A stretch of 50,791 nucleotides of DNA from Girardia tigrina (Eukaryota): assembly GCA_001938485.1 (NCBI GenBank), contig MQRK01243438.1, positions 19,233 to 70,023 of the forward strand. Direction: 5' to 3'. The position numbers and the translations under genes were made by a program. Positions 388-50,592 of this stretch are shown here, one piece after another. The notes below the pieces were generated by a model. The model had not been told where the DNA came from. It worked only from the letters and a program-made list of their open reading frames with translations, and made no database searches. How positions within the stretch are numbered: position 1 is the first letter of the stretch; the number at the start of each line of letters is the position of its first letter.

Positions 388-922
388 TCAGTCGGCATTA
401 TTCGAATAGTCCATTTCTCTCTTGATATTTGGTCCGCCGTTGTTACTGTGGTTGCCGTTGTTGTTCGTAGTACTGGTGCTACTCTCCTTGACATTATCCG
501 ACCGATTATTGTCGCCATTATCGTCTTTATAGCTCTTGTATTTGCCGGACTCTTCTTCGGGAGACTTGTGACGCCGTTGGTGTCGTTCTTTGCGGTTGTC
601 ATAGGAGCGCGAGCGGGACCGTGACTGTCGATGGCGCTTACTCGACCGATGTCGGCGGTGTTTTCTGTCACTGTCGCCCGACGAGTGTCGGTCGCGGCTG
701 TGCTTCCTGTGTCGCCGGCTACTGCTACTCTCCTCGGGGCTTCGGTTACGTTTTCTCGAGTGTTTCGATTCGTAACCCCGTTCTCGACTGCGAGAACGCG
801 ATCGACGCCGTCTTTCTGAGCTTCGTTCTCGCCGTTCTCGTGATCGGTATCGGCGAGATTCTTCATGGCGGCTCGAACGTTCTGCTTTGATGTAATTCTT
901 GCGATCGTAATCTTCATGGGAA
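388..922 (-). CDS. FIP1L1: FIP1 exon 7 (RE/RS-rich C-terminus)
   Basis: Frame HSHEDYDRK...[22 protein letters not shown]...NNAD*. This is a different frame from listed ORF 369-917. Confidence 0.9.
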
Positions 923-3900
923 CTTAAACAAGACGAAGAGGAATAAAGAGAGTAACAAAAAATGAAGTCGGTTACTGCATCGAATCGACACTGTTTGATC
1001 GCTCATAACTGCCAGTTGTTTGATTGGACCAATTATTGGCTGGATTTCCCATTCCTCCGCCACCCATTCCACTGTTATAACTATGGTTACCGGGCCCTCC
1101 AACCCCACGAACGCCTCCCGCACCGCCACCGCTGCCACTATCAATCGGGTTGAATTGGGTCATCTTGGCGTCAATTGGTGCGTTCGGTGGATTCGTGAGA
1201 ACTTGGACATTGGCAGTATTAGGGAGAATGCCCATCGCCATGGCGGCGGACATTATCGGATTAAGAATGTTGTTATTAAGGGCTTGATTGGCGAGACCTG
1301 TTCGTGTTTCGGGAAGATAAAGAGGAATTAAGAGAAAAACGAGCAAGAAAGAAATTTCACACCTGACATGTAATTATTGGGTTGATTGGGGCCAACGTTA
1401 ACATTGCCCGTTTGAACGGGAATGGTTGAGATTTTGTTTACCATGTTGAGATTAATGTCATTGTGTTTGTTTTTATATTCACTTTGTTGGCTGCTGATCA
1501 CATCAATCAAGCCGCCTTTGTTGGTTTTGTGATTGCTGCGGTTGAATCCTAAATGGATGTGACTACCGCTCAGAGGGTAACCGAAATTCTGGAGACCGCT
1601 GAGCTGAAAAAATGATTTTGGTGTTCAATCCATAAGTTCATGTGATAATGTTTGATAATAATTTATAGTATCGCTAAATTTTATTTTTATTTAAAATAAT
1701 AAACGTGATGATCAACGAATGTCTGACAGTAATTTTGTTAAAAAAGCTTTTACGTAAACTTGATATATGCATTTGTTATTCACCGAAGTACAAACGTTGG
1801 TTTCTTTTATGAGATTCATATATTTCTATGTAAACTTTTTGTGCGACTTTATTATAGTTTTGAAAATTAATTTTTAATACGAATTTCATTGTCATTTCCC
1901 AACTTTTACTTTTATAGTTACAGTACGTAGATCTAATTTGTTGTGACCTTTTAACCCTTTTACTGCTCTACAAGTATGGATACATAAATTTTATCTTAAA
2001 TGGAGAATCAAAATACGAATATGACATAGTGTAATGAAAACGTTATGGTTAATGTAAATGAAGGACAAAAGGAAGAGGAAAACCTTACAATTAATGATGT
2101 TCAGATCTTTGAATTGGATGACATTAAAGTTATATATATTCCAAATGAAGAATGTCTTAATGAAAATTCGACTGAGAATGTTGAACCTTTTGACGTGAAT
2201 GCAGAAAAGACGAAAGGTAAGGAGATTCCTTTGGATGTCGAAAGTTCTAAATCTGAAAATGCAGATAATTTCAGTGAAATGAAATATGAATTCAATAATT
2301 TGAATACGAGTAATATTGAGACAGATGAAGAAGAAGCTTCCTTTACAACATTGGGTGATTCCCAATCAAAAAGTTCATCACTTGAGGATGAAAATATTGA
2401 AATTAAAGATGCGATTACTGAAGAAAATTATTCACAAGAAGAGCATTTTACAACAAATTTCGCAATCAAAGTAGCAAGAGGTAAACTGTAACGTATACTT
2501 CCATCGTTTAATGATACCTTGCCACATTTATCAGTTGATCCAGGACAAAAAGTTTCAGAGTTATATTTAGATAATTTGCTATACAATCCTGGCAGTAGGT
2601 GCAGCAACAAGGTCCAAAGTAAGGATTTATCAAAAGATCATAACAAATGATACACTTGTATTTTTTACTAATGTTTGTTATTAAAAGGAAACGATTTCGA
2701 TCATCGGTTTTCATTGTTTACAAAATAATAAATAATAAACTCAAAAAATGCGTGTCTCAAACGCTCTGGACGTGTATTTTCGCATCATATTTTGAATAGG
2801 TTCCCCTCTCAACCCGACTTTTTAACTACATATTACGTATGTGTGTATGCAAACACGAGACCTGAAGATTTGATTTTTAAAATAATAGTTTTCTTCGGTT
2901 TTTCTATTATTTTATTTCTTACTTGAATAATCACGCAACCACTAAGTTATACGCGAACAGCGGACACGAAATCTCAAAAAGTATTGTGCAGTGAAAGGGT
3001 AAATGCATTTTCTTCGGAGGATATGTTCTGCATAGTGACTCAGGCGTATGAGTAAATTATATAAATATTGCTAAATCACATCAAAAATAAAAGAAAATTA
3101 CAAAAAATGATAAGAAAATATAAATATAGTTAAAAATAAGTTCGGTTATTTTCGATACACGGTGTCATCAAATTTTCCTAGTGGTAGTTTATTTCGATGG
3201 TTTTATTCATACATTTTTATTTTATATTTCACGTGGAGTTTCGAGCAAAAGTTGTTTTTTATTGCGTTGAATGCAAAATTAGTTGTGGTGTAACTGATTA
3301 TTGTGGCGTTAGAGGGAAGTTTTAATTTTCTGTAGCTGAAGAGCACTGTTTCAAGAATGGTGATTTCAGAGTTGAGAGCAAAGAGAAAATTGTATTACTC
3401 GATAAAGATACTAACCAAAACAAGAAGCTGGAAGAGTTATGGAACAAGCAGTTTCTGAACAATTGAAAAACATGACGATTCATAAGCAAGGCCATTGTGT
3501 GAATTTTGAGCTGGAACAGAGAGATATTACACGATGATTTTTCATTTGTGAGCAGGTGATTCAAAAGTAAAAAAGAAATTATTTTTAACATCGAAGTGTG
3601 ACTAAGGATCATAAATCAAAATCAACTCCCCAGTCAAATATTCATGGTTCGAAGGTAATATTGTATCTTCAATAATAATTCAAATCTTTTTGTAGCGAAA
3701 TATTTTCATCTAATAACTTGGCGAAAATTGTTAGAGGTAATATAGGGGTTTTCGATCTTTAATAAAAGTTAAAATCTTTAACCATTAATAAAACTGTTGT
3801 AATTAATAATTAAAATGTTGCTATCGTTAATATCCTTGTGAATTTGAATTAAAATGTGAAAACTCGGAACAATTGATTGTCAAAATATTCGAGATGTATG

Positions 3901-6900
3901 ACTTCAGTTACATCGTATCGTCAAACAATTCGAAGCTATAGGAAAATTCGAAAGTAAAAAAGGAAGAGATGAGATATTGAACATAAAGAAATAGTAATAG
4001 TACAAACACAGTGGATCGAATTTTAAGATCTTTTCATTATTCTTTAAAATGTTTGGTACTCAACCCAGAAAGAAGAAACCGTGAGACAACAAAAGAAAAA
4101 GAATCATTTATGCTTTTAGATTTCCAGAATTAGAATAGAACTTGGAATACAAATTTTATTTTCCTTGACGAAGTGGGGTTTACTCGTTCGAAAAAAAGGT
4201 AGGTCATTGATTTAAACCTCTTCGTATGTTTCTGTTCAAGCTGCAAGAAGCAGACACATAACAGAATATTCGATTTTGCTGTAACCGGATAAGATTTTAA
4301 GTTGATATCAAGGCAAAATGTATATAGGTTCAGAATAAAGAACGGGCGACGTACGACATCATCCTACATCAATTGAAAATTCTCATTCCGATTGCGAATC
4401 CAGCAAGAATTTTAGTTGACTTCGAGACGGCAGCGATGTCTGCATTTCAATCAGCATATCCAAATGCAGCCATCTCGGGATGCTATTTTCATCTGTGTCT
4501 GAGCGTTTTAAGAAAAGTGAATGAAATTGGAATGAAACAGGCTTATGAAAATGATAACATTGTCCGAGAAGCAGTCCGATGTATACCTGCGTTGGCTCTT
4601 GTCCCTGAAGATGACGTCATCGATGCTTTTGAGTTACTTTCAGGTGACATTGGTGAAGTACATGAGCAAATGCCAGAGCTTCTGTCCTATTTCGAGCACA
4701 CTTACATCCGTGGTCGAAGAAGGGCTGGACGAAACACTCAATACGGACCAAGCTTATTCTCTATCGAACGTTGGAATCAACATCAAGCTGCAGCTGACGG
4801 TATTGCCCGAACAACAAATTCCGTGGAAGGATGGCACTATGGCATCCAGTCCTTGTTCCAATGTCACCATCCTACTCTCTGGACCTTCTTGGATGGCATC
4901 TCAAAGTATATCCAGAAGCAAAAGACAAGTTTTCAACAGGGAATATCAGGAGTCGATCAACCACCAAGGAAGAAATATCGTGATTTAAAGGATCGTGTAG
5001 TTAACCTTTATTTAGCTGCAAATATTCTGCAGTTTTTGCGATCAGTAGCTCACCTGTCTCACCAGTAGTTGAAACATTATAACAATTAGGCTTATATTAT
5101 TTTTATATTTTCTATTCTTGGAATATAAAACCTGAGTAGAAATAGTATTGAATTTAAATAATTAAATAGTCTAGCATTATTTGTTAGTGAATCTTAATAT
5201 TATCTATGTTTTATTTTCTAATAACCAATACAAATGTTGTATTGTGATTATTATTTTTCTGTTTCGGGCAAATCAAACTCAAATATATTCTTTATAAAAC
5301 AGTAAACAATATAAACTATTTCATGCAATAAACAATTTTTTATTATCGTTTAAAAAAACAAAAAATTTCGTGAGTTTAAATGTCGTTGTGATTATATGTC
5401 GCCGTGTTTATCTGACGCGTGTTTAAATGTCATGTAACCACAATTCGCGATATGTTCTACAATGATTCAACGACAAATCTCGGATTGTTTATAAATATAC
5501 ATGTAATGGGTGTAACGCCACATACATTGGAGAGGCATCTCGTCATCTCTGCAAACGGATCAAAGAGCATAGTCGGTTGGATAATGGGAGCAATATTGCC
5601 GAACATAATTTAAAATGTAAAAAGAAAGTCCAATATATGATTTTAAGATTCTGTGTAATCGATTAAAAAATTTATTGTTCGAGCTTCACATTCAAATTTT
5701 AAGATTCTTTGTTTAAAAATAGAACGACACCGATGTGGAAATAAATTAGAGATAAATTTAAATTGAGTAATTGTTAATTGTCATAAAACGCAGAAAGCCC
5801 TAATAATCTAACTGTTTTCAGTGCTGAGTTCTCCTGCGAAAGTCGGAGCGTCTTCTGCTTCTCGCAATAGAGCAACCAGGTCTCTTCTGTGAACCCGTAA
5901 TTGAAATAATCGCTCACATCCGCGCCCGGTTTCTTCCAGGGCTTAAACTCATCGACTAATTTGCTCAGATCATAATCGATCGTCGGAACGCCGTTGATGT
6001 TGCCCGGGTGATCAAGATCAACCGCAGTCTTCGATAATTTGTAATTGTCTGGAAGGAATGGATTTTTGTCAATTTGAAATCTTTTTTCCGTAAATATTTT
6101 CGAAAATAGGGAAGAAAATGACAATAAAAGACACATTAATTTAGTACTAAAGTTACAAAAAAGCACCTTAAAAAATCAACAAAAAATGAATTAAAATTGA
6201 AAACAATCAATAAAAAAATAATAAATTTTTCAAATAGGTCAAATCGTTTTTGAAAATTTAAATAAAATTTATTAAAAATAAAATAATTTTTTCTTTTTAT
6301 TATTTAAATAGAAATTTATTATATATTTTTAATGAAAAAATGATAAATATTTTTAATGTTATTAATGTAAAAAATGATTTAAAAGTGACATCAGATGATA
6401 AAAAAATTAATAAATAATATTCTGCCAAAAAATTCCATTGGGAAATTCTTCAAAAATTAAATATTATTAAAACGAAACCTTAAAATTAATGGATAATTTA
6501 AAAAAAATTTTAATTAAAATAAAAATATTGCACTGAAATTTAAATTAAATTTTTGTTGATTTTTTCTGGAAATATCTATATGTATAAAAAAGCAAATTTT
6601 TAATTTTTATAAAATTAGAAAAATAATTTTAATTAAAAGTTATTTTTTCCGTAAATATTTTTTTTAAAAAAAAATAAAATAAAAAAGTATTTATTTAGTT
6701 TTTGACACAAATTAAATTACAAAAAAATTTAAAAAAATCAACAAAAAATAAACTAATCAATAAAAAAATATTTAATATTTCAAATATGTGAAATCGTTTT
6801 TTAAAAATTAAAAATAAAAAAAATCTTGTTATAAATAATAGAAATTTATTATATATTTGTATTATAAATGAATTAAAAATGAAAAAAAGGGATTATAAAT

Positions 6901-18665: not shown

Positions 18666-21600
18666 TAGGTTAACTGCCATATATAAATTAGAAAAAAATG
18701 CCCTAGAAGCCAAGTACAAAATACTCATAAAATGTATTTTTAAAAGAGTATATCTAAATTTTTATACAAATTTTTAAGAATAGGTAAACTTTTCCAAAAA
18801 ACAGTCGGAGGTCGAAGAGGTTGTGTTATTCGAGTCAGAATTTGTCAAGCAGTGACATGTCAGTCTATTGTGATTTGCATAAGCAACAGTTACAAAGACT
18901 AATCGAAGTAGAAGATCGTTGAACTTGCTTTGAAAGATGCCCAAAAGCAAGGTAATTATTATTCATTTTTTGAAAGATATATTGATAAATTGATATGGAT
19001 CAAAAAATATTGTCTTTTTTTGTATATATGAAAGCATTATGGCAGTTATTTTGATAACGATTTTTCTTATTATTTCAGGTTATAAATTTAGTTTATTTGG
19101 CTCTGATCTTTGCTCAATGTTTTTGCCATCTAGGGATGAAGAAATATTATCGAGTTCAGATTTCCAAGACTCAGAAGGGGGAACAGAATATTCCAAACGT
19201 AAAGCGAAGCTCAAACGTAAATTACAACCCAGTAAAACCATTTCAAAGAAACTGAATACTGGAAAAAAACAAGATTTTGATAAAGTATGCTGTTCCAAAT
19301 AACTTTTGTCTGCTGACGTCTGGCATGAAGAAATCGAAGACCTTGATGCCCCAACCCGTATTCTACCTGATTCTTTGGAAACAAACGGAAAACGATTATT
19401 TACAGATTTGTAAAATAACGGAAATATTTCATCAGAGCGATTGAAAGAATTCTTTGAAGTTGAAACGATAGCCCACACACAACCACCAAATACATAGGAT
19501 ATCCAGCAATCTGAAAATGAGGCTGAACTAAACCAAAACGTTCTTGAGTATACGTGGACGGAATCGGTAGGAAATCATCAAGAATTTCATTACTCCGAGG
19601 AGGGTGGTTTACAGGGAAATTACGCAGTAATACTTATAAATGAATTATTGCCCTATAACTGTTTCCGTACTTTCGTTGACAATGAAATTATTGTGGAGAC
19701 GGTAAATCAAACAAACCAATACGTAACTCAAGTATTGCGCGATTCAAAAGACATAAAGAAGGAATCAAGATTACACCGATGGACTCCAAGTGATAGAAAA
19801 GAAATGATCAAATTTTGGCCCAGTGGCTTACATTGGTTTGGTAAAAATGCCTTCATTGGAGAAGTATTGGATGAATGATGTCCTATATACGAATGTTATT
19901 ATACCAAAAACCATGTCGAGAAATAAGTTTCAATTGCTTCTTAGAATAGGGAATTTCTCTGATAATGAAAGTTTCCCAGAAAGCGACGGTCTATACAAGA
20001 TGAAGCCACTAGCAGAAAAGCTTGTTAAAAACTTTCAAAGGGTCTACACTCCTGGTCGGATGTTTCGTATAGATGAGTCTATTATTCCTTTTCAAGGGCG
20101 ATTGCTATTCAAGCAAAATATTTTATTAAAAACTCATAAGTATGGAGTAAATTTTTTTATAATTATGCAGCCACAATGGGTATAAATGGAACTTACGAAT
20201 ATATGCTGGAAAAGAAAAAAAATGATGGAAACACTTCTGTTCCCACTAATATTGTTATCAACCTCTCAAGGGATCTACTATATGTAGGACGAGCTATAAT
20301 AGCTGATAACTATTATACAAGTCTCGAATTATCAAATATTTTGTTGGACAATAAAACAAATTATACTGGTTCATTGAGAGCTAACCGGCGTGGTAATCCA
20401 TAAGAAGTTTCAGAAAAAGAAATTAAAAAAAGGGGAAGTGTATGGACAAGAAAACGAAAGAGGAGTATGCGTCCTAAATTGGAAAGAGAAGAGTGATGTT
20501 CTTCTTCTCACGCTCCTGAAACCGTAAATGTAGAGCGACGCACTGGTGTGATTCATAAACTGAAGGCAATAATCGAATATAACGATTGAAAATCGTCGAT
20601 TGATCAATCTGATTAGATGACCAGTAATAATTCTACCTTGAGAAAATCCATCAAATGGTATAGGAAACTCGATATAGAATTTATTTTAGGGACAACGCTT
20701 GTAAATTCACATATAATACGCAACCAACTTGCGAATAAAAAAATGAAAATTACAGAGTTCCGAGAAGAATAAGTTATCGTGCTCCCCTTTAAAACAACAT
20801 TAATGATGACACTAAGCCCCCATCCTATTTTCATTAGAGTTCAACGGCAACTCTATCAAACTAAACTAATTATATCTCAATGGGGAGCAGACGCGACTCC
20901 TTTGCTTGCATCAACGAGTTGTGCAAACATTAGAGCGCCTTCGGGTTCTTAACCAGTAACGAAGATGTCCCGACTGGTGGCTGAGCTTCTAGAGGGGATG
21001 ATCGTAACTTTAACGACTCAATTTCTCAAATTCGATTTTATTATCTCACGCCAGACAACGATACCTCAACGAGACAAATGACGGTCAGCCCACGTGTCCC
21101 TATGCATACTATGGTCTGCCTGCATCGTCTCCCTGAGTTCCTTGCCGAGCAGTGCCTTCATCATTAATCATAATTACACTCAGCTACTCCCGTTAACCTA
21201 CTTATATATACACTATATTTAATTACGTTTTACTGTATTCATCATATTCCATCAAATTCTATTACATGTTATTATAACTTTATTATATTCGCTCATCTTG
21301 GGGTCTAATTCGGGATAAAACTAACATCCGATGCGTATCGACTTACGTTTATCACAGAACTACAATTTCTCGATGGATTAATAAAAATAACTTTGATTGA
21401 ATTTTTAAATGACAATTCTACTCGACGCTTTTATCTCAGAAATAGTGAAAACCTTTAATTTAAAAGCTACGATTTCGCCCCTGATCATTGAACTAACTAC
21501 TGATATACAAAGTTATAGAAACGCTACACTCCTTCACTCCAACCATCAAACCAATAAAGATAATTTACAGTTAATACAAAAAGCAGTATTTTATTAAGAT

Positions 21601-23735
21601 GAACAATTTGAGACGCTTATTCTTGGTCAATCAACGATTCTGATTATCATTTCAACTTTACTTTTACCATACGGCATCTCTCTGAAGTTGACGACACCCT
21701 AGTTTATACTTTTGTCACCTTTTAATCGTCGCCTCAAAATTACTTTTCGACTTTAATTCTATTTAATCACCATTTGTAGTCCTAACGAGGACTGTGTCTC
21801 ATTCTCTCTAATTGATATCACGCCGCTCACATTTAAAATCATTAAAATTAGTATATAAGAAAAATAAAATAAGATAAAAAGAAATTTTTATTAGAAATTT
21901 ATTATTAAAAAAAATTTTTTTTGAAAGAAACGTAAGATTTACGAAAAGAATTACCATTACAAAGATTATAAATTAAATTAAAATTTATATCAAATTAAAA
22001 ATAATCCATTACGTTATTACGAAAATCCTTAAACAATTACACACTATTAAATTAATTAATTAAAAAAAAATCATTACAAACGAAGATAATCAAAATTAAA
22101 ACTGTCTGAGAATAATCAAATGTTAAAGATAACACCTAGCGCTAGATATAATGACACTCATTCGATACCGTACTCAAATATTAAAATCATTCAACCTGTA
22201 GAGAACGTCATATAAGAAAGTTTAATTAAATTGTTCATAAAATGATTACTCTGGAAGTATATACAAATATTTACACTGATTCCGTCCATACAATCTGATT
22301 ACGTACCTTAACTCAAGGACCGCATCACTCGATCCCTTGAATACGGAGACGAATCACAATCGTACTTCCGATTCTCAAGTATCATTGAGTCCATCCCGGT
22401 ATCAATCATAACGTTATTAAATAATATTATGAAACGAATCAAAGACATTACTAAGAATAATAAATTATATATTTAATTGAAGTCGATTACCTCAACCGAT
22501 AAATAAAATCGCACCTCTAATTAATAAAATGAAGACATATATAACTTCGGATCACTAACTCAAATAACAAATGATAAAATAATAATTTAAGTCACCAAAG
22601 TCGATTGGTATAAATATGCGAATCAATAACAATTAGATTGAGCCAAAATGAAATAATTAAATTAAGCCAGAGTAAATAAATTAGATCACTAGAATTATGA
22701 GCGAAATAATCATTGTGATTAAATAAGCGAATAATACATGATAATTAAATTAAATAAAAAGAAGGTAAATTAAACCCAAAAGTACTGACAATACCTTCTC
22801 TAAACTCTTCTTTAAATTAATGGTAATAATCGTCTTCTCTAATTTCTTCTCCAAATTAACAATAGTATTCGTCGGATAAATAGACTATATTAACGCGAAT
22901 TTGAAAATCGTCTTGCAGCTAATATGTCGTAATACGAATGAAGAATGAATTCGTCTAATGAATAATTTATCGTAAAATAAATGTTAACGAAAGTAGATTT
23001 TTGGATTTGTGGGCAGGCATGTGCAGATTGTGTCGGGTATTTATACCCTACCGCAAGCTTCGCTGGCTCGGCATCCTGTCTTGCGGGTGCAACATCTATA
23101 ATCATGCAGGATGTTCGATGCCAATTCTTTATTCTGCCGACCGTTCATGCCGGATGTTTACCGCGAAGGTAAACAATAGCGAATGCTACGATTTCACATG
23201 GAATTCTCGTGTGAACTTTTAGGTAAATTTTTTAATTAACTTCTTAATTAGTTTCATCTTTGTTTTTCTTTTTAGGTCTTTTCAATGGTCTCTCAAGGGT
23301 TCCTGTCAACGTTTTCCGGCTCCTGGGACCTTCCATCCTACTGCTGGTCCAGCGCATATGAAGGGATTTAAAACTAACGGGCATAATCGAGTTTGATTAT
23401 CCCCACAAACTCTGACAAAACTCTCATACGCGTGGGATAATGTAATGGGTGGAAGGGAGTTACTTAGTGAGGTGTAAAACATGGAATCGTAACAAAGTGA
23501 TATACCTTTTAACTTATGACGAAAATGAGACAAGGCAAATACCATTATATAAAAAAAACAGCACAAATTCTTAATTTGCATAAAAAAGAAGGTCCTTTTG
23601 ACAAAATCAGAAAATATTGTAAAGGTTGTTATGCAAAAAACCTTCGGGAAAAAATAACCAATAATCAAATCAAAAAGGTTGTGACCTATTGTTCTACATG
23701 CGAGATTCATTTGTATCTGGAATGTTATAAGATCA
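18666..23735 (+). mobile_element. piggyBac (PGBD4-like) transposase pseudogene interrupted by the 20775-23494 insertion
   Basis: MSRNKF, IDESIIPFQGR, HKYG, ADNYYTS, GSLRANR, KWYRKL, TEFREE motifs in 19530-20774, resuming at 23499 with the Cys-rich domain RKYCKGCY...TYCSTC. Left end TTAA-TAGGTTAACTGCC is tentative. Confidence 0.9.
20775..23494. mobile_element. Giant solo-LTR-like non-coding element, copy 1 (2.7 kb)
   Basis: TATCGTGCTCCCC (TG changed to TA) ... GGAATCGTAACA; 4-bp TSD AAGT; piggyBac sequence rejoins across it; homologous to 38221-44129. Confidence 0.85.
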
Positions 23736-38220: not shown

Positions 38221-41200
38221 TGTCGTGCTCCCCTTCAAAACAACATTTTCGTTGGCTCTGAGTCCCCATCCGTTTTCTTAGAGTTCAACGGCAACTCTAA
38301 TTCTCAATACTTCTCTACATAGACATTCACTACACTTGGGGAGTAGACGCGCCTCCTTTGCTTACATCAACAAGCTGTGTAAACATTAGAGCGCCTTCGG
38401 GTTCTTAATCAGTAACGAGGATGTCCCGACTGGTGGCTGAGCTTCTAGAGGGGATGATTTCAACTTTTTCGACTCAATTCCTCAAATTTGATTTTATTAT
38501 CTCATGCCAGACAAAGATATCTCAACGAGACAAATGACGGTCAGCTCTCGTGTCCCTATGCATTCTATGGTCTGCCTACACTGTTAACCTAAGATCTTGT
38601 CTGAACAGTAACTTCGTCTTTTTTTACAACTACATGTATGTTCCACTCATATATGAAACTTTGTGTCTCAATTATATTTAACGGTTAATTATATATACCT
38701 TATCTTATTATATTTATCAAATTCGATTGCATTTTATTATATTGGTTATATTCGTTTATGTTGGAGAACTAATTTTCATCGTTTGATTTATGTTTAGGGC
38801 AAACTCATATTTTATATACATCAACCCACACTCTGAGCGATAGCAAAGTATAATCTTGGCGTGAAATTTGAAACTTGACTTCAATTTTGTAATAACGATC
38901 GACTTTTGAAATAACAATTTCGGCCCGAATTTCTGACTTCATTTTTATCATATACCATACTAGTTTACATTTTGATCATGTTATTTTAAGCATTATCTTG
39001 AGGTTAACTTTCAAGTTTAACTTCACTCTTTTTTTCTCAATTCAATCATCATCTATTGTAGTCCTGACAAGGACTGTGTCTCATTCCCTCATAACACCTT
39101 GACATCATGCCGCTCATATTTCACCTTCTCAGCTCAAATCTTTATCAACACAATTTCTCGTTTTAGAAAATTTCTTTTGATAGCATTTAACTATACATAG
39201 AATCCACTTTAAGGTCATAAAGCTTATAGGATTGTAACCACAGAAATTATAAAACAATTAATAAAATTTTTAATTATCGAACGAATTTACAATTGAGAGC
39301 GGCGCATATAATTTTAAGTTAGAAACCATTACTTAATTCGAAACGTTAATTAAATCAAAGATCTTTAAAACTGTATTACGATTAAATCAAATCAACTACA
39401 ATTAAATCATTTATAAATTAACTCAACATCAAACTATAAACCAAGACGAAATTGAAAATGAAATTGTTTTTATATCAGTTTTTAGTTGATCATTAATTTC
39501 CGTTTAATTTAGTTTATTTTCAATTTCAATAAGTTTTTCTTTAAATTCTCTGTGATTACTCTCATATTTTATCTTGGAATTTTCACAAATTTTTTTATTT
39601 TTAAATGTATCTTTTGCCATTGATTCTATTTTTTCATTCATTGTTTTCATATCAGTATTAATTGTGAAGGCGGATTTTAAATATAACTCTAACCATTGAT
39701 GTACACTTTTTACATTAGTTCGAACTAAGATTTATGTTTCATGATACATTAGCGATGAAAGGCAAAGAGAATTCCAAAGAAACAAACGTCGGACTGCCCG
39801 CATGCCCCTTGCATGCTACGAGCACCCTACGTCGTTACCGAAGGTCCTCTGTCCCCATCATATTCAAATGATATTTTATATTTGCATTTATATGCAAATA
39901 TAAAATATCATTTGAATATGATGGGGACAGAGGACCTTCGGTAACGACGTAAGGTGCTCGTATATATATATATATATGTTGGTGTATTTTAAATTTATTG
40001 CTGGGTATTGAATTATAGTTTTAAATATGTCTATTCAAAGAAAATATATAATTCTCTATTTAATCCACTTTAATCGAAGGCTGCGTTGCTTGTTCGTAGC
40101 TCGAACCCAGCTCAATATTTGATACTGTAAATTTTATTTGCAATTGAGATCAAATAACAAATATTATAAAAAATTATATTTGATAATCACAAAATTTGTA
40201 CATGAATCTTTACTATAAACTGAGGTTGAATAATGATTTGCTTTACTCTTCTTTTAAGTTTTATATTTTTATATTTGATTTTTGAATATTATTTTTGCTT
40301 TTATTTTTTTGTGTGTTGTGATTGAATTTTTGAAGAGTATTTATTTATTTATTATTATTTATTTACTTATATAATAATAAATATATAAAATTTAAAATAT
40401 TATTTAATTAAAAATAATTTTAATTTTTTAAATTATTAAAAATTTTAATTTTGATTTAAGCCACCATGTGGCACAAATTATTAAAATTTTAATGATTGCC
40501 TATCACTAGGCTAATTATAATTTGTGAAATTTTGCCACCATGTGGCACTAATTAGTTATATAAATTGGGAATTTGTTCCCATAAATCTTTTCAAGTCAAA
40601 AATTTTTGACTTTCAACTGGGTATGACGAGACTCGCCGATTGGTAAAGTCAATCAGCAAACGTCATCCCAGTGGAAGTCTTTTGGAATTAATTATTATTT
40701 TTCTTTTCTTCAAAAAAAAGGTAAGTTCTGTTTATAGTAATAATAATACTTTTAATAATAATAATAATACAATTTTTATAATTATAATAAAAATTTAAAG
40801 AAACTAATAATATAATATTTATAATATTTATAATATTTATATAATATTTATTAATAATAATAATAAATATTTTTTTTGAATGAAGATAAACCTTTGGCGA
40901 ACTTCTCCGTCCAAAGCAGGAGTACCCTCATAATGAATGGGTCCCTGTGGAGGAAGGAAAACCTCGCCGATAAGGAATATAATAATATTAATTCTAAGAA
41001 TACTAATAATGATATAATAAAAATAATTATGATAGTGATAAAATTAATAATTATGAACAATAATTATAATAGTAATTACACTAATAATAATAATAATTAT
41101 ACAAATGATTATAAAAATAATATTATTAATAAAGATATTAATTATATCAATATTATTGATATTAATAATAATTTAGATTCTAATAATTTTAGTAATAATA

Positions 41201-41469
41201 ATAATAATATAATAAAAAATAAATAAAGATAAAATTAATAATGTCATAACTTAATATTAAATTAATACTGATGATAAATAATAAATATTTACTAAGATTT
41301 TTTATATATATTTCTTTATTATTATTATCCAAATTAACCGCCTCGCATCCCTGAGCGACCTGCTCAAACAAAGGGAAGGTTAAAATGGGATTATCCGTCC
41401 TGTTTATTTGATTTATTTATTTATTATTTTTCTTAATTTTTTATTTAGGACAATGGGTACGCTCATTTA

Positions 41470-41512
<43 letters not shown>

Positions 41513-44129
41513 TTACATAATCCCAACATATATATNNNNNNNNNNNNNNNNNNNNNNNNNNNNNNNNNNNNNNNNNNNNNNNNNNNNNNNNNNNNNNNNN
41601 NNNNNNNNNNNNNNNNNNNNNNTATTTCATATTCGACACTCAGCGCTTCAAATACTTTAACCATTTTCGATCAGGATTATTTAAATGTTTAAACCCTACT
41701 CACGCAAATACTCAACAGGTAACGATGTTTTGTCTAATTACAAATCGATAAGCAAATCGTTTTATTCAAAATGATTTATTCAAATATTCGCATTTTAGTC
41801 AACAAAATAAAACGATCGACAATAATATTTTATTCAACACATTTTTAGTAATTCGCGAAGAAACTCGTTTTTTTTCACGAACTCTCATCTTCAACTGTCT
41901 CACTCTCACAATCAGTCTTGGCAGTCTTCTTTTATAATATCTCACGCTTTTCTTGTACTCGCACATCTTTCTGTATCTTTTCAGATCATATTATTCGGAA
42001 TAATTTCATGTTTACATTACTTCATATTTTTCACATAAGTTATATTATCCATGTTAATTTTCTATTCATACTGTTTCATGTTATTCACATAGATCATTCA
42101 AATATCTTTATCAGGTGTAGCCATTTATTCGCAGAACATTTAGGCACTCTCAAAATATAGTCCAACACAATTAAGCAACTCAAAATTTAGATAAAAGTTA
42201 TAAAAAGAAAATCGATTATCAAATAAAAATCGTTAGTATTTCTTTACAAAATAAAATTAATCAGAGATTAAATCGATTAAATTCAAATCTTAATAAAATA
42301 AAACTGTATTAATGAATTTTTTTAATGAAATTATAAAATATTTATTAAAACATTACTACAAAGTATTATTATTCATAAAATATTATTAAGACTATTAAGA
42401 ACACCAATTTGATTTTTTATATTTTTATTTAAACAACAATTTTGATTGTCCTCAAGACAATTTTTGTCAAAACTTTCGTACATTTGCATTCAAAGCGAAA
42501 TTGATTAATAGTTTTAATTCTTATTACTTTTTTAGAAAATGGGGAAATAAATATTTAAATAAAATATTCACTCAAAACTTATTGGATAATAATTAAAATG
42601 ATAATTAATAATTTAAAAAATATTAATTTGATTTATTTATTAAATATTATAAAANTTAATTAACTTATTTAAAATTTTAAAATTATATGAAATTAAAAAT
42701 AAATTTAAACATTACATATTTTTAGATAATAAGAATTAAAATATTAATCATCCATCTGGGTAGGAGAGACACATCTCCAAATCAACATACACATTCAAAC
42801 ACAAAACATCAAACATTCAAATATTCCTCACAAAGACAAAATTAATAGATCAGTGGCAGAATTAGTGACAATAATATATACAATAATAAAGTCATCATCA
42901 TATTAATTCTCCATTAACTTCATAATCTGCTATGTACATTATTTGCAAGAGCTACATGCGAATCAATTACACCTCGGAGTCCAAGGACCCTCCCTCCTGA
43001 TCCCTTGGACACAGAAGTAAACTGTGTTCGCATCTTCACCCCCTTGGACCGTTAACCTCGTCGTCCATGGCAGTTCGACTCGACCTCAACAATTTGATAT
43101 TCATACTCAAGACATAATTCAGGTTATTACTAAGTCGGAACATTGATGAAAATTTCGTTTGAAGAATTAATGAAATTATAATGTTCAAAACTTTTATTGG
43201 AAACACTCCAGATTATAGAAATGAAGTAAATAGCATAAAAAATTTTTTTAAAAATTAAATCAAAATTATTTAATTAAAACAAAATAAATAAAGTTATGAA
43301 GTACAATAAAATCAAAATAAAATGCAACGGAGATAAAATTACGTCACCAATAATCAACTAGTATTATACCTCCCAATATCGAATAATTTCGCCAAATAAT
43401 TTCAATCAAGTAATATTCGTCAAATAATTTCAACCAAAAGTGATGGGCTTGTAACAAAAGATTTAAATGAAATAAAATATCGTAAATTGTAACTGGCTGG
43501 TGAATTGTGTTTTATTGTGCACAACTTCGGCATGTATTTATACCTCCCGGATGTGCACAATCCTGGGCGAGCTCGGGCATCTGGTGCATGTCACCCCGAG
43601 GCAGGATGCTACGACATCCGCGATTCGCGGATATACTGTTACTTTAATGCAGTAGTTTACGCGGGTTACCCACAATCGTAAACAATTTTTTTCGTTATTT
43701 CTAATTATTTAAATTTTCAGTTCGGATGTTTAGGCTAGCCGGCTCTATCCACAGAGACGATGTACGGACGGTGTCCTTCATGAAACGGTGCAACACCGGA
43801 TAATCACGAACTGTCTGGATGATGTTATGATTCACATTGAATCGTCGAGGTGATTTTAACTAATTTAATTAAAGATCATTAATTTTTTATTTCGTTTCTA
43901 GAAAGCCTCAAAGGAATTTCAGAAGATTGCAAGGGGTTTTCGGATAAAAGTACTCATTCCCAAGGATCCCTCACTTTATTCTCCGTCCGGCGCGCATGGA
44001 ATCATTTAAAACTAACGGGGATAGTCGAGTTTGACTATCCCCACAACTCTGACAAACTTTCGTGCGCGCGGGATAGTGTACATTGGAGAAGGGGTTCTGG
44101 ATTTGATGTGCAAAATGTGGAACGTAAAA
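38221..44129. mobile_element. Giant solo-LTR-like non-coding element, copy 2 (about 5.9 kb including a gap and probable nested inserts)
   Basis: TGTCGTGCTCCCC ... GGAACGTAAAA (CA changed to AA); 4-bp TSD AAAC; five co-linear blocks shared with copy 1. Confidence 0.85.
39817..39962. repeat. 146-bp near-perfect palindrome followed by (TA)n
   Basis: 71-bp arms with one mismatch and a 4-nt loop. Confidence 0.95.
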
Positions 44130-49173: not shown

Positions 49174-50592
49174 GGTGAGGCAACTTTACCGCGAATTTTT
49201 TCAGATTTTTAATTAAGATATTTTTTGCCATTATTACCGAATAATGCTTTATTAAAATATAATAATTATAATAAAATTTTCCATTTACGTTTAAAAATAT
49301 ATCTTAAAATATTATAAATTTCTTAAAATTTTTCTCTCACTGTTTTTTTCAGCATGAATCTTCAATTCTTTACTTCAAAATCTGGAAATCCGATTGTTGC
49401 GTATGCAGGTTATTCTTATCGCTTTGATTATGATTTAAAATCCCTAGATGGAAAATTCTGGCGCTGTGTTGTTTATGAACAACATAAGTGTAAAGGAAAA
49501 ATTCGTACTTCAAACAACAACGAGGCATCTATTATTTTAGGTCACCCTTCTGAGCATAATCATGCTCCTGAGCCAGGTAAAGTTGTCGCTAGGCACATTG
49601 CTCAGGGGATTGCAACTCGTGCATCGCAGACAGTAAAGGCCCCGAGGCAAATTATTCAGAAATCTAGGACTGGGATTCCACTTGACGCTGCAATATTTCT
49701 TCCAAGTTATCGCTCTAGTCAACGTATAATTCAACGAAAAAGAAAACAAGAGAATGCTCCTTGGCCAAATTCAAATCATCTTTCAGAAATAAATGTTCCT
49801 GAAAATTTGAGGCTTACAACTAGAAATGAATCTTTTTTGATACTCGATTCTGGATCTAATGATGCCAACCGGATAATGCTCTTCAGTACAATTGCAAAAA
49901 CATAAATCTGATGGCTTCTTGTGAAATTGGGTTTATAGATGGGACATTCTCTGTCATCCCTCGATTATTTTACCAAGTTTATACTACATACTTTAAAATC
50001 AAACAAAGTATTCCCTCTTGTTTATGCATTGATGACTAATAAAACTCAATTAAATTACACTCGTATGTTTGAAGAGCTTTTAAGACAACAACCAAATTTA
50101 AATCTACAAACTATTATGATGGATTTTGAAAAAGGAGCAATGAACGCTGTTTCCACTGTATTTTGTAATGCTACTGTTAAATGCTGTTTTTTTTCATCTG
50201 AATCAATCAATTTGGAAAAAAAATAAAAGAAACAGTTTAATGTTTTTGTATCTTTCTTCAATTTACACATCACATTTTTTGGGTTATTTGAATTTTTTAA
50301 ATTAGGAATTTACTAATTTTTCGTATGTTGTTTGTTTGTTTTTTTTATTAAAAAGAATAATTAAATGTCATGTCCATCTGAAATTTTCTATCCATTTATG
50401 TTTTCAAATTAAAACCTTATTATGATTCATTGTTTTATCATTACATAATTAAAATTTATATATATATTTTAGATGACATTGTTTACTTTTTGACAATTTT
50501 GTTGTAAATTTTCCGCGATAAAGTCACCTGCTACAAAGTCGCCCGCGATAAAGTCGTCCGCGGTAAAGTCGCCGCGGTAAAGTCCGGGTACC
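49174..50592 (+). mobile_element. MULE/Mutator element with FLYWCH-MULE transposase pseudogene (49354-50226)
   Basis: 9-bp TSD GATTACTAT (49165-49173 / 50593-50601); GG...CC ends with ACTTTACCGCG subterminal repeats; FLYWCH FWRC...HKCKG...HNH; DGTF, FPLVYALM, DFEKGAMNA across frameshifts. Confidence 0.93.

Follow-up and report, generated by a model that had tools for sequence, protein, structure and literature searches.

In the accounts given in PMC1636488 and PMC2615633, the Drosophila elements HeT-A and TART produce non-coding antisense RNAs with several introns in their terminal repeat regions; intron size and spacing are alike across diverged subfamilies, the sense RNA is unspliced, and the role of the splicing is called elusive (PMC2615633). 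Among deltaretroviruses, the AS1 and AS2 transcripts of BLV, which are probably non-coding, and hbz of HTLV-1 are described as spliced antisense transcripts that start in the LTR (PMC10186651). Antisense promoters or open reading frames (ORFs) are reported for the LTR retrotransposons micropia, Grande, Retand, AtRE1 and IAP, and for micropia a regulation through double-stranded RNA by non-coding antisense transcription was proposed (PMC7264820). Large gypsy elements, namely Burro and Ogre, are described as having multi-kb LTRs and extra ORFs, Burro in an AT-rich animal host (PMC6431247).

We analyzed a window of 50,791 nucleotides from Girardia tigrina (contig MQRK01243438.1), to which all coordinates below refer, and compared its two LTRs with these systems. 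As in HeT-A and TART, an intron-bearing non-coding antisense RNA would arise from the terminal repeat of a retroelement, with the splicing here predicted from the sequence. However, HeT-A and TART are non-LTR telomeric elements with RACE and EST proof, whereas the present element is an LTR element of putative gypsy type, the predicted introns lie wholly inside U3 and are of minimal host size, and a covarying RNA rod lies downstream of them. The predicted RNA also resembles BLV AS1/AS2 as a probably non-coding antisense RNA from an LTR, although complete short introns inside U3 do not appear in the account of PMC10186651, and, unlike the protein-coding hbz, no antisense ORF was found for it. 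By analogy, the RNA may work like those of HeT-A/TART and BLV AS1/AS2 while belonging to neither system. The predicted non-coding antisense transcription of an LTR element would be shared with micropia, whereas LTR-internal introns and a conserved RNA fold are absent from the account of micropia, Grande, Retand, AtRE1 and IAP in PMC7264820. Multi-kb LTRs (here 2.6–3.8 kb) and extra ORFs are shared with Burro and Ogre as described in PMC6431247, as is the AT-rich animal host with Burro, but here short ORFs precede gag, transmembrane-like ORF pieces precede the polypurine tract (PPT), and no polyprotein was recovered. In a partial survey of the literature, we met no account of a gypsy element whose LTR itself holds antisense introns together with a conserved fold.

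Anatomy and orientation of the LTRs

Copy 2 occupies positions 38221..44129 of the minus strand, with an AAAC target duplication and TG..CA-type ends of which the last CA is mutated to AA. Copy 1, a member of another subfamily, lies on the same strand at 20775..23494 (2720 bp) with an AAGT target duplication, and its similarity to copy 2 is confined to the two ends and to short blocks in the middle. The length of copy 2 is about 3.7–3.8 kb once its secondary insertions are subtracted: one at 42393..42832, missing from close relatives, and an AT-rich insertion or rearrangement at 39903..41622 (borders approximate). Genome searches, in each of which the best 40 of 638–2733 first-look candidates were scored and which therefore do not give copy numbers, returned many relatives with the same end bases and unrelated flanks. 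Both repeats, introduced in the initial annotation as copies of an LTR-like element, are therefore solo LTRs. TG...CA termini with a perfect 4-bp target duplication were observed in 10 of 14 rows compared and with one mismatch in 2 further rows, and four loci gave no row for comparison.

We determined the strand of the element from its internal junctions. Read on the minus strand, a TGG adjoining the left LTR end gave 42 matches in a pattern search of the genome. The plus-strand orientation was rejected, as 6 matches to a TGG resembling a primer-binding site (PBS) were found at the corresponding end and the internal sequence was common to none. A PBS was present at the LTR end in 6 of the 30 loci inspected, with a common internal sequence downstream in 5 of those 6; on the minus strand it matched the 3′ end of the tRNA-Pro(UGG) encoded in the same genome at 18/18 positions in L122, L125 and L133, and with 1–2 differences in L114, L117 and L137. 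Beyond the PBS, a gag-like ORF lies on the minus strand, and its 91%-identical relative P0001 contains a zf-CCHC domain (PF00098). At the opposite LTR end, a PPT with a common internal flank was found at L212 and L217 (2/30 loci), and two degenerate PPT pattern searches returned no match. The tRNA-Pro PBS, gag and PPT therefore place the element sense on the window minus strand, and the window plus strand is the antisense strand of the LTR. For copies with two LTRs around one internal region, only 5′ or 3′ junctions were recovered in the fragmented assembly. When the first ~80 termini showed unrelated flanks, a Ginger-like (TGT..ACA) DNA transposon and a non-autonomous unit standing alone had been considered. 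Relatives of copy 2 terminate at the identical base, and the PBS and PPT junctions found in relatives ruled both candidates out.

U3 is probably longer than 2 kb, and its distal 600 nt hold the intron-like segments on the antisense strand, where they escape loss by reverse transcription because the replicating sense RNA is the other strand. Of the two transcripts initially proposed for these segments, an antisense RNA fits this orientation, while a spliced leader coexisting with an unspliced replicating RNA does not, since the replicating RNA, as located by PBS, gag and PPT, is of the opposite strand. A TATA box at 38690..38697 (minus strand) is likely the genomic RNA promoter at the U3/R border, and an AATAAA at 38493..38498 (minus strand) is likely the poly(A) signal in R; among 55 LTR ends, a strict sense TATA was found within 380–560 nt of the LTR 3′ end, at about 420–480 nt, in 27 and a sense AATAAA 255–300 nt from it in 25. 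A distal TATA block lies at 43534..43543, with the canonical form TATAAATA on the minus strand and TATTTATA on the plus strand; it is quasi-palindromic in many subfamilies, and across its variants the minus-strand consensus is better kept than the plus-strand one, which counts against an antisense RNA.

The 4-bp target duplication, a length typical for gypsy-type elements, and the CCHC gag suggest a probable gypsy-type element; pol pieces near LTR loci may belong to nested elements, and none was linked to this LTR. Between PBS and gag, 3–4 short sense ORFs of ~130–160 aa form an unusual layout in L114, L122, L125, L133, L137 and L161; they share ~70–85% DNA identity between loci and gave no Pfam match. 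Directly ahead of the PPT, at L220:3709-5593, sense ORF pieces with hydrophobic stretches were observed, which from that stretch and their position alone are possibly an env-like gene; they gave no Pfam match, and their Atlas matches, all below 0.85, are leads only. L147:24-3866 and L149:2-4445, beside LTR-PBS starts, contain ORFs on the opposite strand whose domains are ankyrin and RNase T exonuclease on the one hand and Ulp1 protease on the other; these ORFs are probably pieces of other large elements.

Several other features were observed in the window. An intron-less ORF of 183 aa with a RIO1 kinase domain, possibly a processed or captured fragment, lies just outside the LTR at 37561-38112 (plus strand). 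A 71-bp near-perfect inverted repeat at 39817-39962 marks the edge of the copy 2 insertion; in other subfamilies, part of this module comes immediately after the initial 240 nt of the LTR end, which suggests chimeric LTRs. Within the other secondary insertion, 42720-42833 is a very high-copy repeat with the heaviest contig coverage. Decayed transposon ORFs occur at 4328-5068, 19498-20185, 24449-24889, 26963-27901, 31609-32559, 32947-34489 and 49327-49905; reverse transcriptase (PF00078) and FLYWCH (PF04500) domains were identified among them by Pfam, and others we take, by resemblance, to be MULE-, piggyBac-, mariner- and hAT-like. The last exons of a host gene with an arginine/serine-rich tail lie at 388-1640 (minus strand), with short introns of ~65–75 nt by eye.

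Intron-like segments on the antisense strand of U3

The initial annotation had described three GT..AG segments of host intron size on the plus strand, at 43678-43720 and 43850-43901 in copy 2 and 23223-23275 in copy 1, and their coordinates and sequences proved exact. We compared them with host introns from myosin loci of the same genome, which were 43–89 nt in length and 43–60 nt in 17 of 19 cases, in agreement with the proposed host-like size; these 19 were chosen by eye from 83 noisy spliced-alignment candidates, and the choice favoured AT-rich GT..AG pairs, so that the AT content of these introns gives no independent support. The window DNA has roughly 28% GC, and its two strands hold 1.1 and 0.8 T-rich GT..YAG pairs per kb at a length of 40–62 nt and an AT content of at least 0.8. 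With about one such pair per kb per strand, a lone segment is therefore ordinary. Pairs that also have GC-richer flanks number 5 on the plus and 4 on the minus strand, and the three segments are 3 of these 5.

The segment at 43850..43901 (52 nt, 83% AT) is homologous, as had been suggested, to 23223..23275 of copy 1 (53 nt, 83% AT; host-model score 16.0). From 142 anchored LTR ends we retained 84 distinct insertions, which form 26 clusters at 80% identity, and searched both strands for the corresponding pair. An AT-rich GT..YAG pair, mostly of 51–54 nt, was found on the antisense strand of 67 of the 84 insertions compared with 3 on the sense strand, counts that, like all counts here, are inflated by related copies; among subfamily representatives the numbers were 17/26 and 0/26, respectively. 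A stricter filter retained 63/84 insertions and 15/26 clusters. Of the 9 representatives without the pair, 6 were truncated or rearranged, one had an AAG acceptor, one had lost the GT and one had no donor. By eye, no precise intron-less copy was seen among the 84 insertions.

Across 15 representatives, the donor hexamers were of 8 kinds, including GTAAAT, GTAAAA, GTGATT and GTAAGT, the acceptors were TAG (11), CAG (3) and AAG (1), and the length was 44–57 nt, with 51–54 nt in 13 of 15. The donor profile is G/GTAAAT-like, with exon positions –2 to –8 variable. A GT was present 5–10 nt ahead of an internal anchor in 66 of 81 copies, while control windows gave 4–36 of 81. The dinucleotides AA, TA and GG scored equally high in the anchor window because all are part of one G/GTAA motif. 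Varied donors, exchanged acceptors and a near-constant length amid diverged flanks are the pattern expected of selected splice sites. The segment combines a GT donor, a YAG after a T-rich tract, a host-like length and conservation across homologues, and judged by these features 43850-43901 is probably a spliced intron.

A different reading of the same segments is that the AT-rich patches are enhancer DNA, with homeodomain arrays of TAATTA, forkhead sites of RTAAACA and nucleosome-excluding tracts, whose GT and AG are the inherited edges of motifs and are not spliced. The interior of the conserved segment is 75% identical on average between subfamilies, compared with 59% for the flanking exons and 56% for unrelated host introns, and it contains 1–3 TAATTA motifs, compared with 2 of 17 host introns that have one; for this interior, more conserved than expected, a role at the DNA level is therefore at least shared. 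A boundary test based on composition alone was weak: both GT and AG were present in 15 of 51 cases, compared with 17% in controls. However, enhancer DNA does not predict the 67:3 strand bias, the exchange among TAG, CAG and AAG, the length of 51–54 nt or the donor-like profile, nor an RNA-type covarying rod on the antisense strand (see below), and as an account of the region as a whole we consider it rather unlikely.

At copy-1 position 23169, enhancer DNA is nevertheless the reading we prefer. A donor there was initially described as shared with copy 2, but it is not homologous to 43678 and belongs to a different module. Its GT is not invariant, since the sequence at 23169..23175 (plus strand) is GTAAACA in 16 copies and ATAAACA in 7 (A for G in 7/23), and the sole AG that lies at intron distance is immediately adjacent to the next donor. 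RTAAACA, which we take to be a forkhead-type motif, occurs 56 times in U3 compared with 2.2 expected. Because the motif is kept while G and A are exchanged 16:7, the site is better read as a forkhead-type site, which it likely is, than as a splice donor, which it probably is not.

The segment at 43678..43720 (43 nt, 84% AT, GT..AG, plus strand) is specific to one subfamily. Its score of 8.4 falls inside the host leave-one-out range of 1.5–19.3, and its donor overlaps a forkhead-type GTAAACA motif. It is present in 10 of 10 close copies, all from one young subfamily at about 90–95% identity, so that its conservation is uninformative; no homologue was found in other subfamilies. Conservation of GT and AG across copies, proposed initially as a check on all these sites, was accordingly seen for the 52/53-nt segment, was lacking at 23169 and gave no information for the 43-nt segment. 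We regard 43678-43720 as a possible intron whose splicing is slightly less likely than not; for this segment enhancer DNA stands at close to even odds. Further upstream, non-homologous intron-like calls numbered 8 in 19 clusters on the antisense strand compared with a shuffle mean of 1.45 (0 of 200 shuffles reached 8), and 1 compared with 0.83 on the sense strand; these counts cover the 48 of 84 insertions in which the TATA block was found, and the excess should be read with the caveat that shuffling destroys AT clumping. Some of the upstream acceptor calls coincide with TGTTTAT motifs, which are enriched (56 compared with 2.2). These calls are no more than suggestive of differing, non-homologous upstream antisense introns among subfamilies. 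In the distal U3 of L023, L025-L027, L017, L018, L021 and L028, GT..AG-bounded AT patches of 26–39 nt were also observed, shorter than the host introns seen.

Junction reads had been named as a further check, and we examined contigs from five sequencing runs, none of them on record as RNA and their RNA origin thus a guess; their word shares did not exceed 0.07. No splice junction was found among 7 contigs of this thin data set, which is in line with enhancer DNA. Of the contigs from run X1, one extends ungapped across 43738-43920 and three others retain the T-tract ahead of the AG of the 52-nt segment, as does a single contig from X2, and one contig is ambiguous; the 43-nt segment was covered by zero contigs. 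As sense genomic RNA holds U3 unspliced, and the contigs may be of DNA origin, retention is expected under either reading and is therefore weak counter-evidence. A join from 43843 to 44006 in one X1 contig, with 28 letters on its short side and GT..AT ends, did not recur on a shorter stretch and was set aside as uninterpretable.

A covarying rod in the predicted last exon

Within 230 nt downstream of the conserved acceptor and 30–170 nt from the PPT-side LTR end, RNAalifold predicted a covarying RNA rod at 43963..44098 (136 nt, plus strand), with an inner hairpin at 44017-44042 (23379-23404 in copy 1) flanked by conserved single-stranded loops. For 26 sequences, the antisense strand gave 32 pairs with a covariation of –2.9, whereas the sense strand gave 11 pairs, the inner hairpin only, with –0.05. 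Among 29 named rod pairs, 95.2% of 753 cells were paired, double changes were found in 30 cells compared with 11.3 in shuffled alignments, and pairs with double changes numbered 10 compared with 7.3 (32 of 500 shuffles reached 10); these statistics ignore relatedness, and the structure was derived from the same alignment. The folding z was lower on the plus strand in 32 of 37 copies. At inner pair 8, 13 copies from related subfamilies have a G.U, which fits a plus-strand RNA.

The rod could alternatively act in minus-strand cDNA, whose sequence is that of the antisense RNA, while the plus strand is primed next to the PPT; the intron-like patch would then be an unrelated DNA element. Its position near the LTR end adjoining the PPT agrees with such a role, and with DNA energies the sequence still folds somewhat better on the plus strand (–3.2 compared with –2.3; 19/26). 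However, this asymmetry is largely shrunken from that obtained with RNA energies (–6.2 compared with –3.4; 25/26), many single changes from C-G to U-G are tolerated in the rod pairs, and the conservation of the splice sites would be left unexplained, so that we consider a cDNA rod improbable.

Rfam covariance models gave 0 matches at the gathering threshold over the window, with 3 chance-level matches at E 0.45–5, and the hairpin core had no match in a metagenome scan. A resemblance of the region to a spliced-leader RNA or hammerhead ribozyme was unsupported by Rfam. On the antisense strand the longest ORF starting with Met is 34–41 aa, with no frame common to the subfamilies; the predicted last exon has no AATAAA, which counts against the antisense RNA. 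Also improbable is a spliced antisense RNA that serves as leader for a protein encoded antisense in the internal sequence past the 3′ LTR: there are precedents in HTLV-1 hbz and plant antisense ORFs, as described in PMC10186651 and PMC7264820, and the transcript would exit the 3′ LTR into that region, but at the sole good 3′ junction (L212/L220) the adjacent 2 kb has sense ORF pieces with a transmembrane-like stretch, overlain by antisense frames of at most 106 aa, the second (L217) is interrupted by another element after about 140 nt, and no conserved hbz-type antisense ORF fed by the LTR exon was found with the one usable junction.

Two further observations concern structure in the repeat. 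X1 contigs at 44004-44050 represent a more distant family, with only the inner hairpin and a flanking loop and a high summed depth, which was not located in the genome. The mid-U3 block at 42920-43080 and 22205-22378 is also conserved, with a second stem whose CCAAGG…CCTTGG arms vary by subfamily and are followed by a conserved GTAA; it has no conserved reading frame, and the LTR middle is without protein-level conservation.

The putative antisense gene and its meaning

On balance, we favour the reading that the antisense strand of U3 encodes a spliced, structured, non-coding RNA. The anatomy and orientation of the LTR, the strand-specific conservation of GT, AG and length, and the covariation on one strand are observed; transcription, splicing, start and end sites and function we infer as follows. 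Antisense transcription by polymerase II would start from a bidirectional promoter located at the quasi-palindromic TATA block (about 43540) or close to it. Excision of the ~52-nt intron would be the work of the host spliceosome, which in certain subfamilies would also take out additional short introns that are non-homologous, 43678-43720 being one example. The rod, in this model, would be a protein-binding element for stability or export, and the RNA would most likely dampen its own element by pairing with the 3′ end of the genomic RNA. The introns would persist because the antisense strand is never the template for reverse transcription.

More speculatively, and with somewhat less than even confidence, the U3 of this LTR clade may be a self-contained antisense non-coding gene, with one fixed minimal intron, independently gained introns and an undescribed rod, kept by selection in no fewer than 17 diverged subfamilies and duplicated along with each solo LTR. 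Within U3, purifying selection appears to act on the splice sites and the folded last exon throughout the LTR radiation, which argues for function over noise, and introns can persist in an LTR by occupying the strand that is never reverse-transcribed. If the antisense gene is real, the element would have a built-in antisense regulator, and the host would have many dispersed copies of a structured lncRNA.
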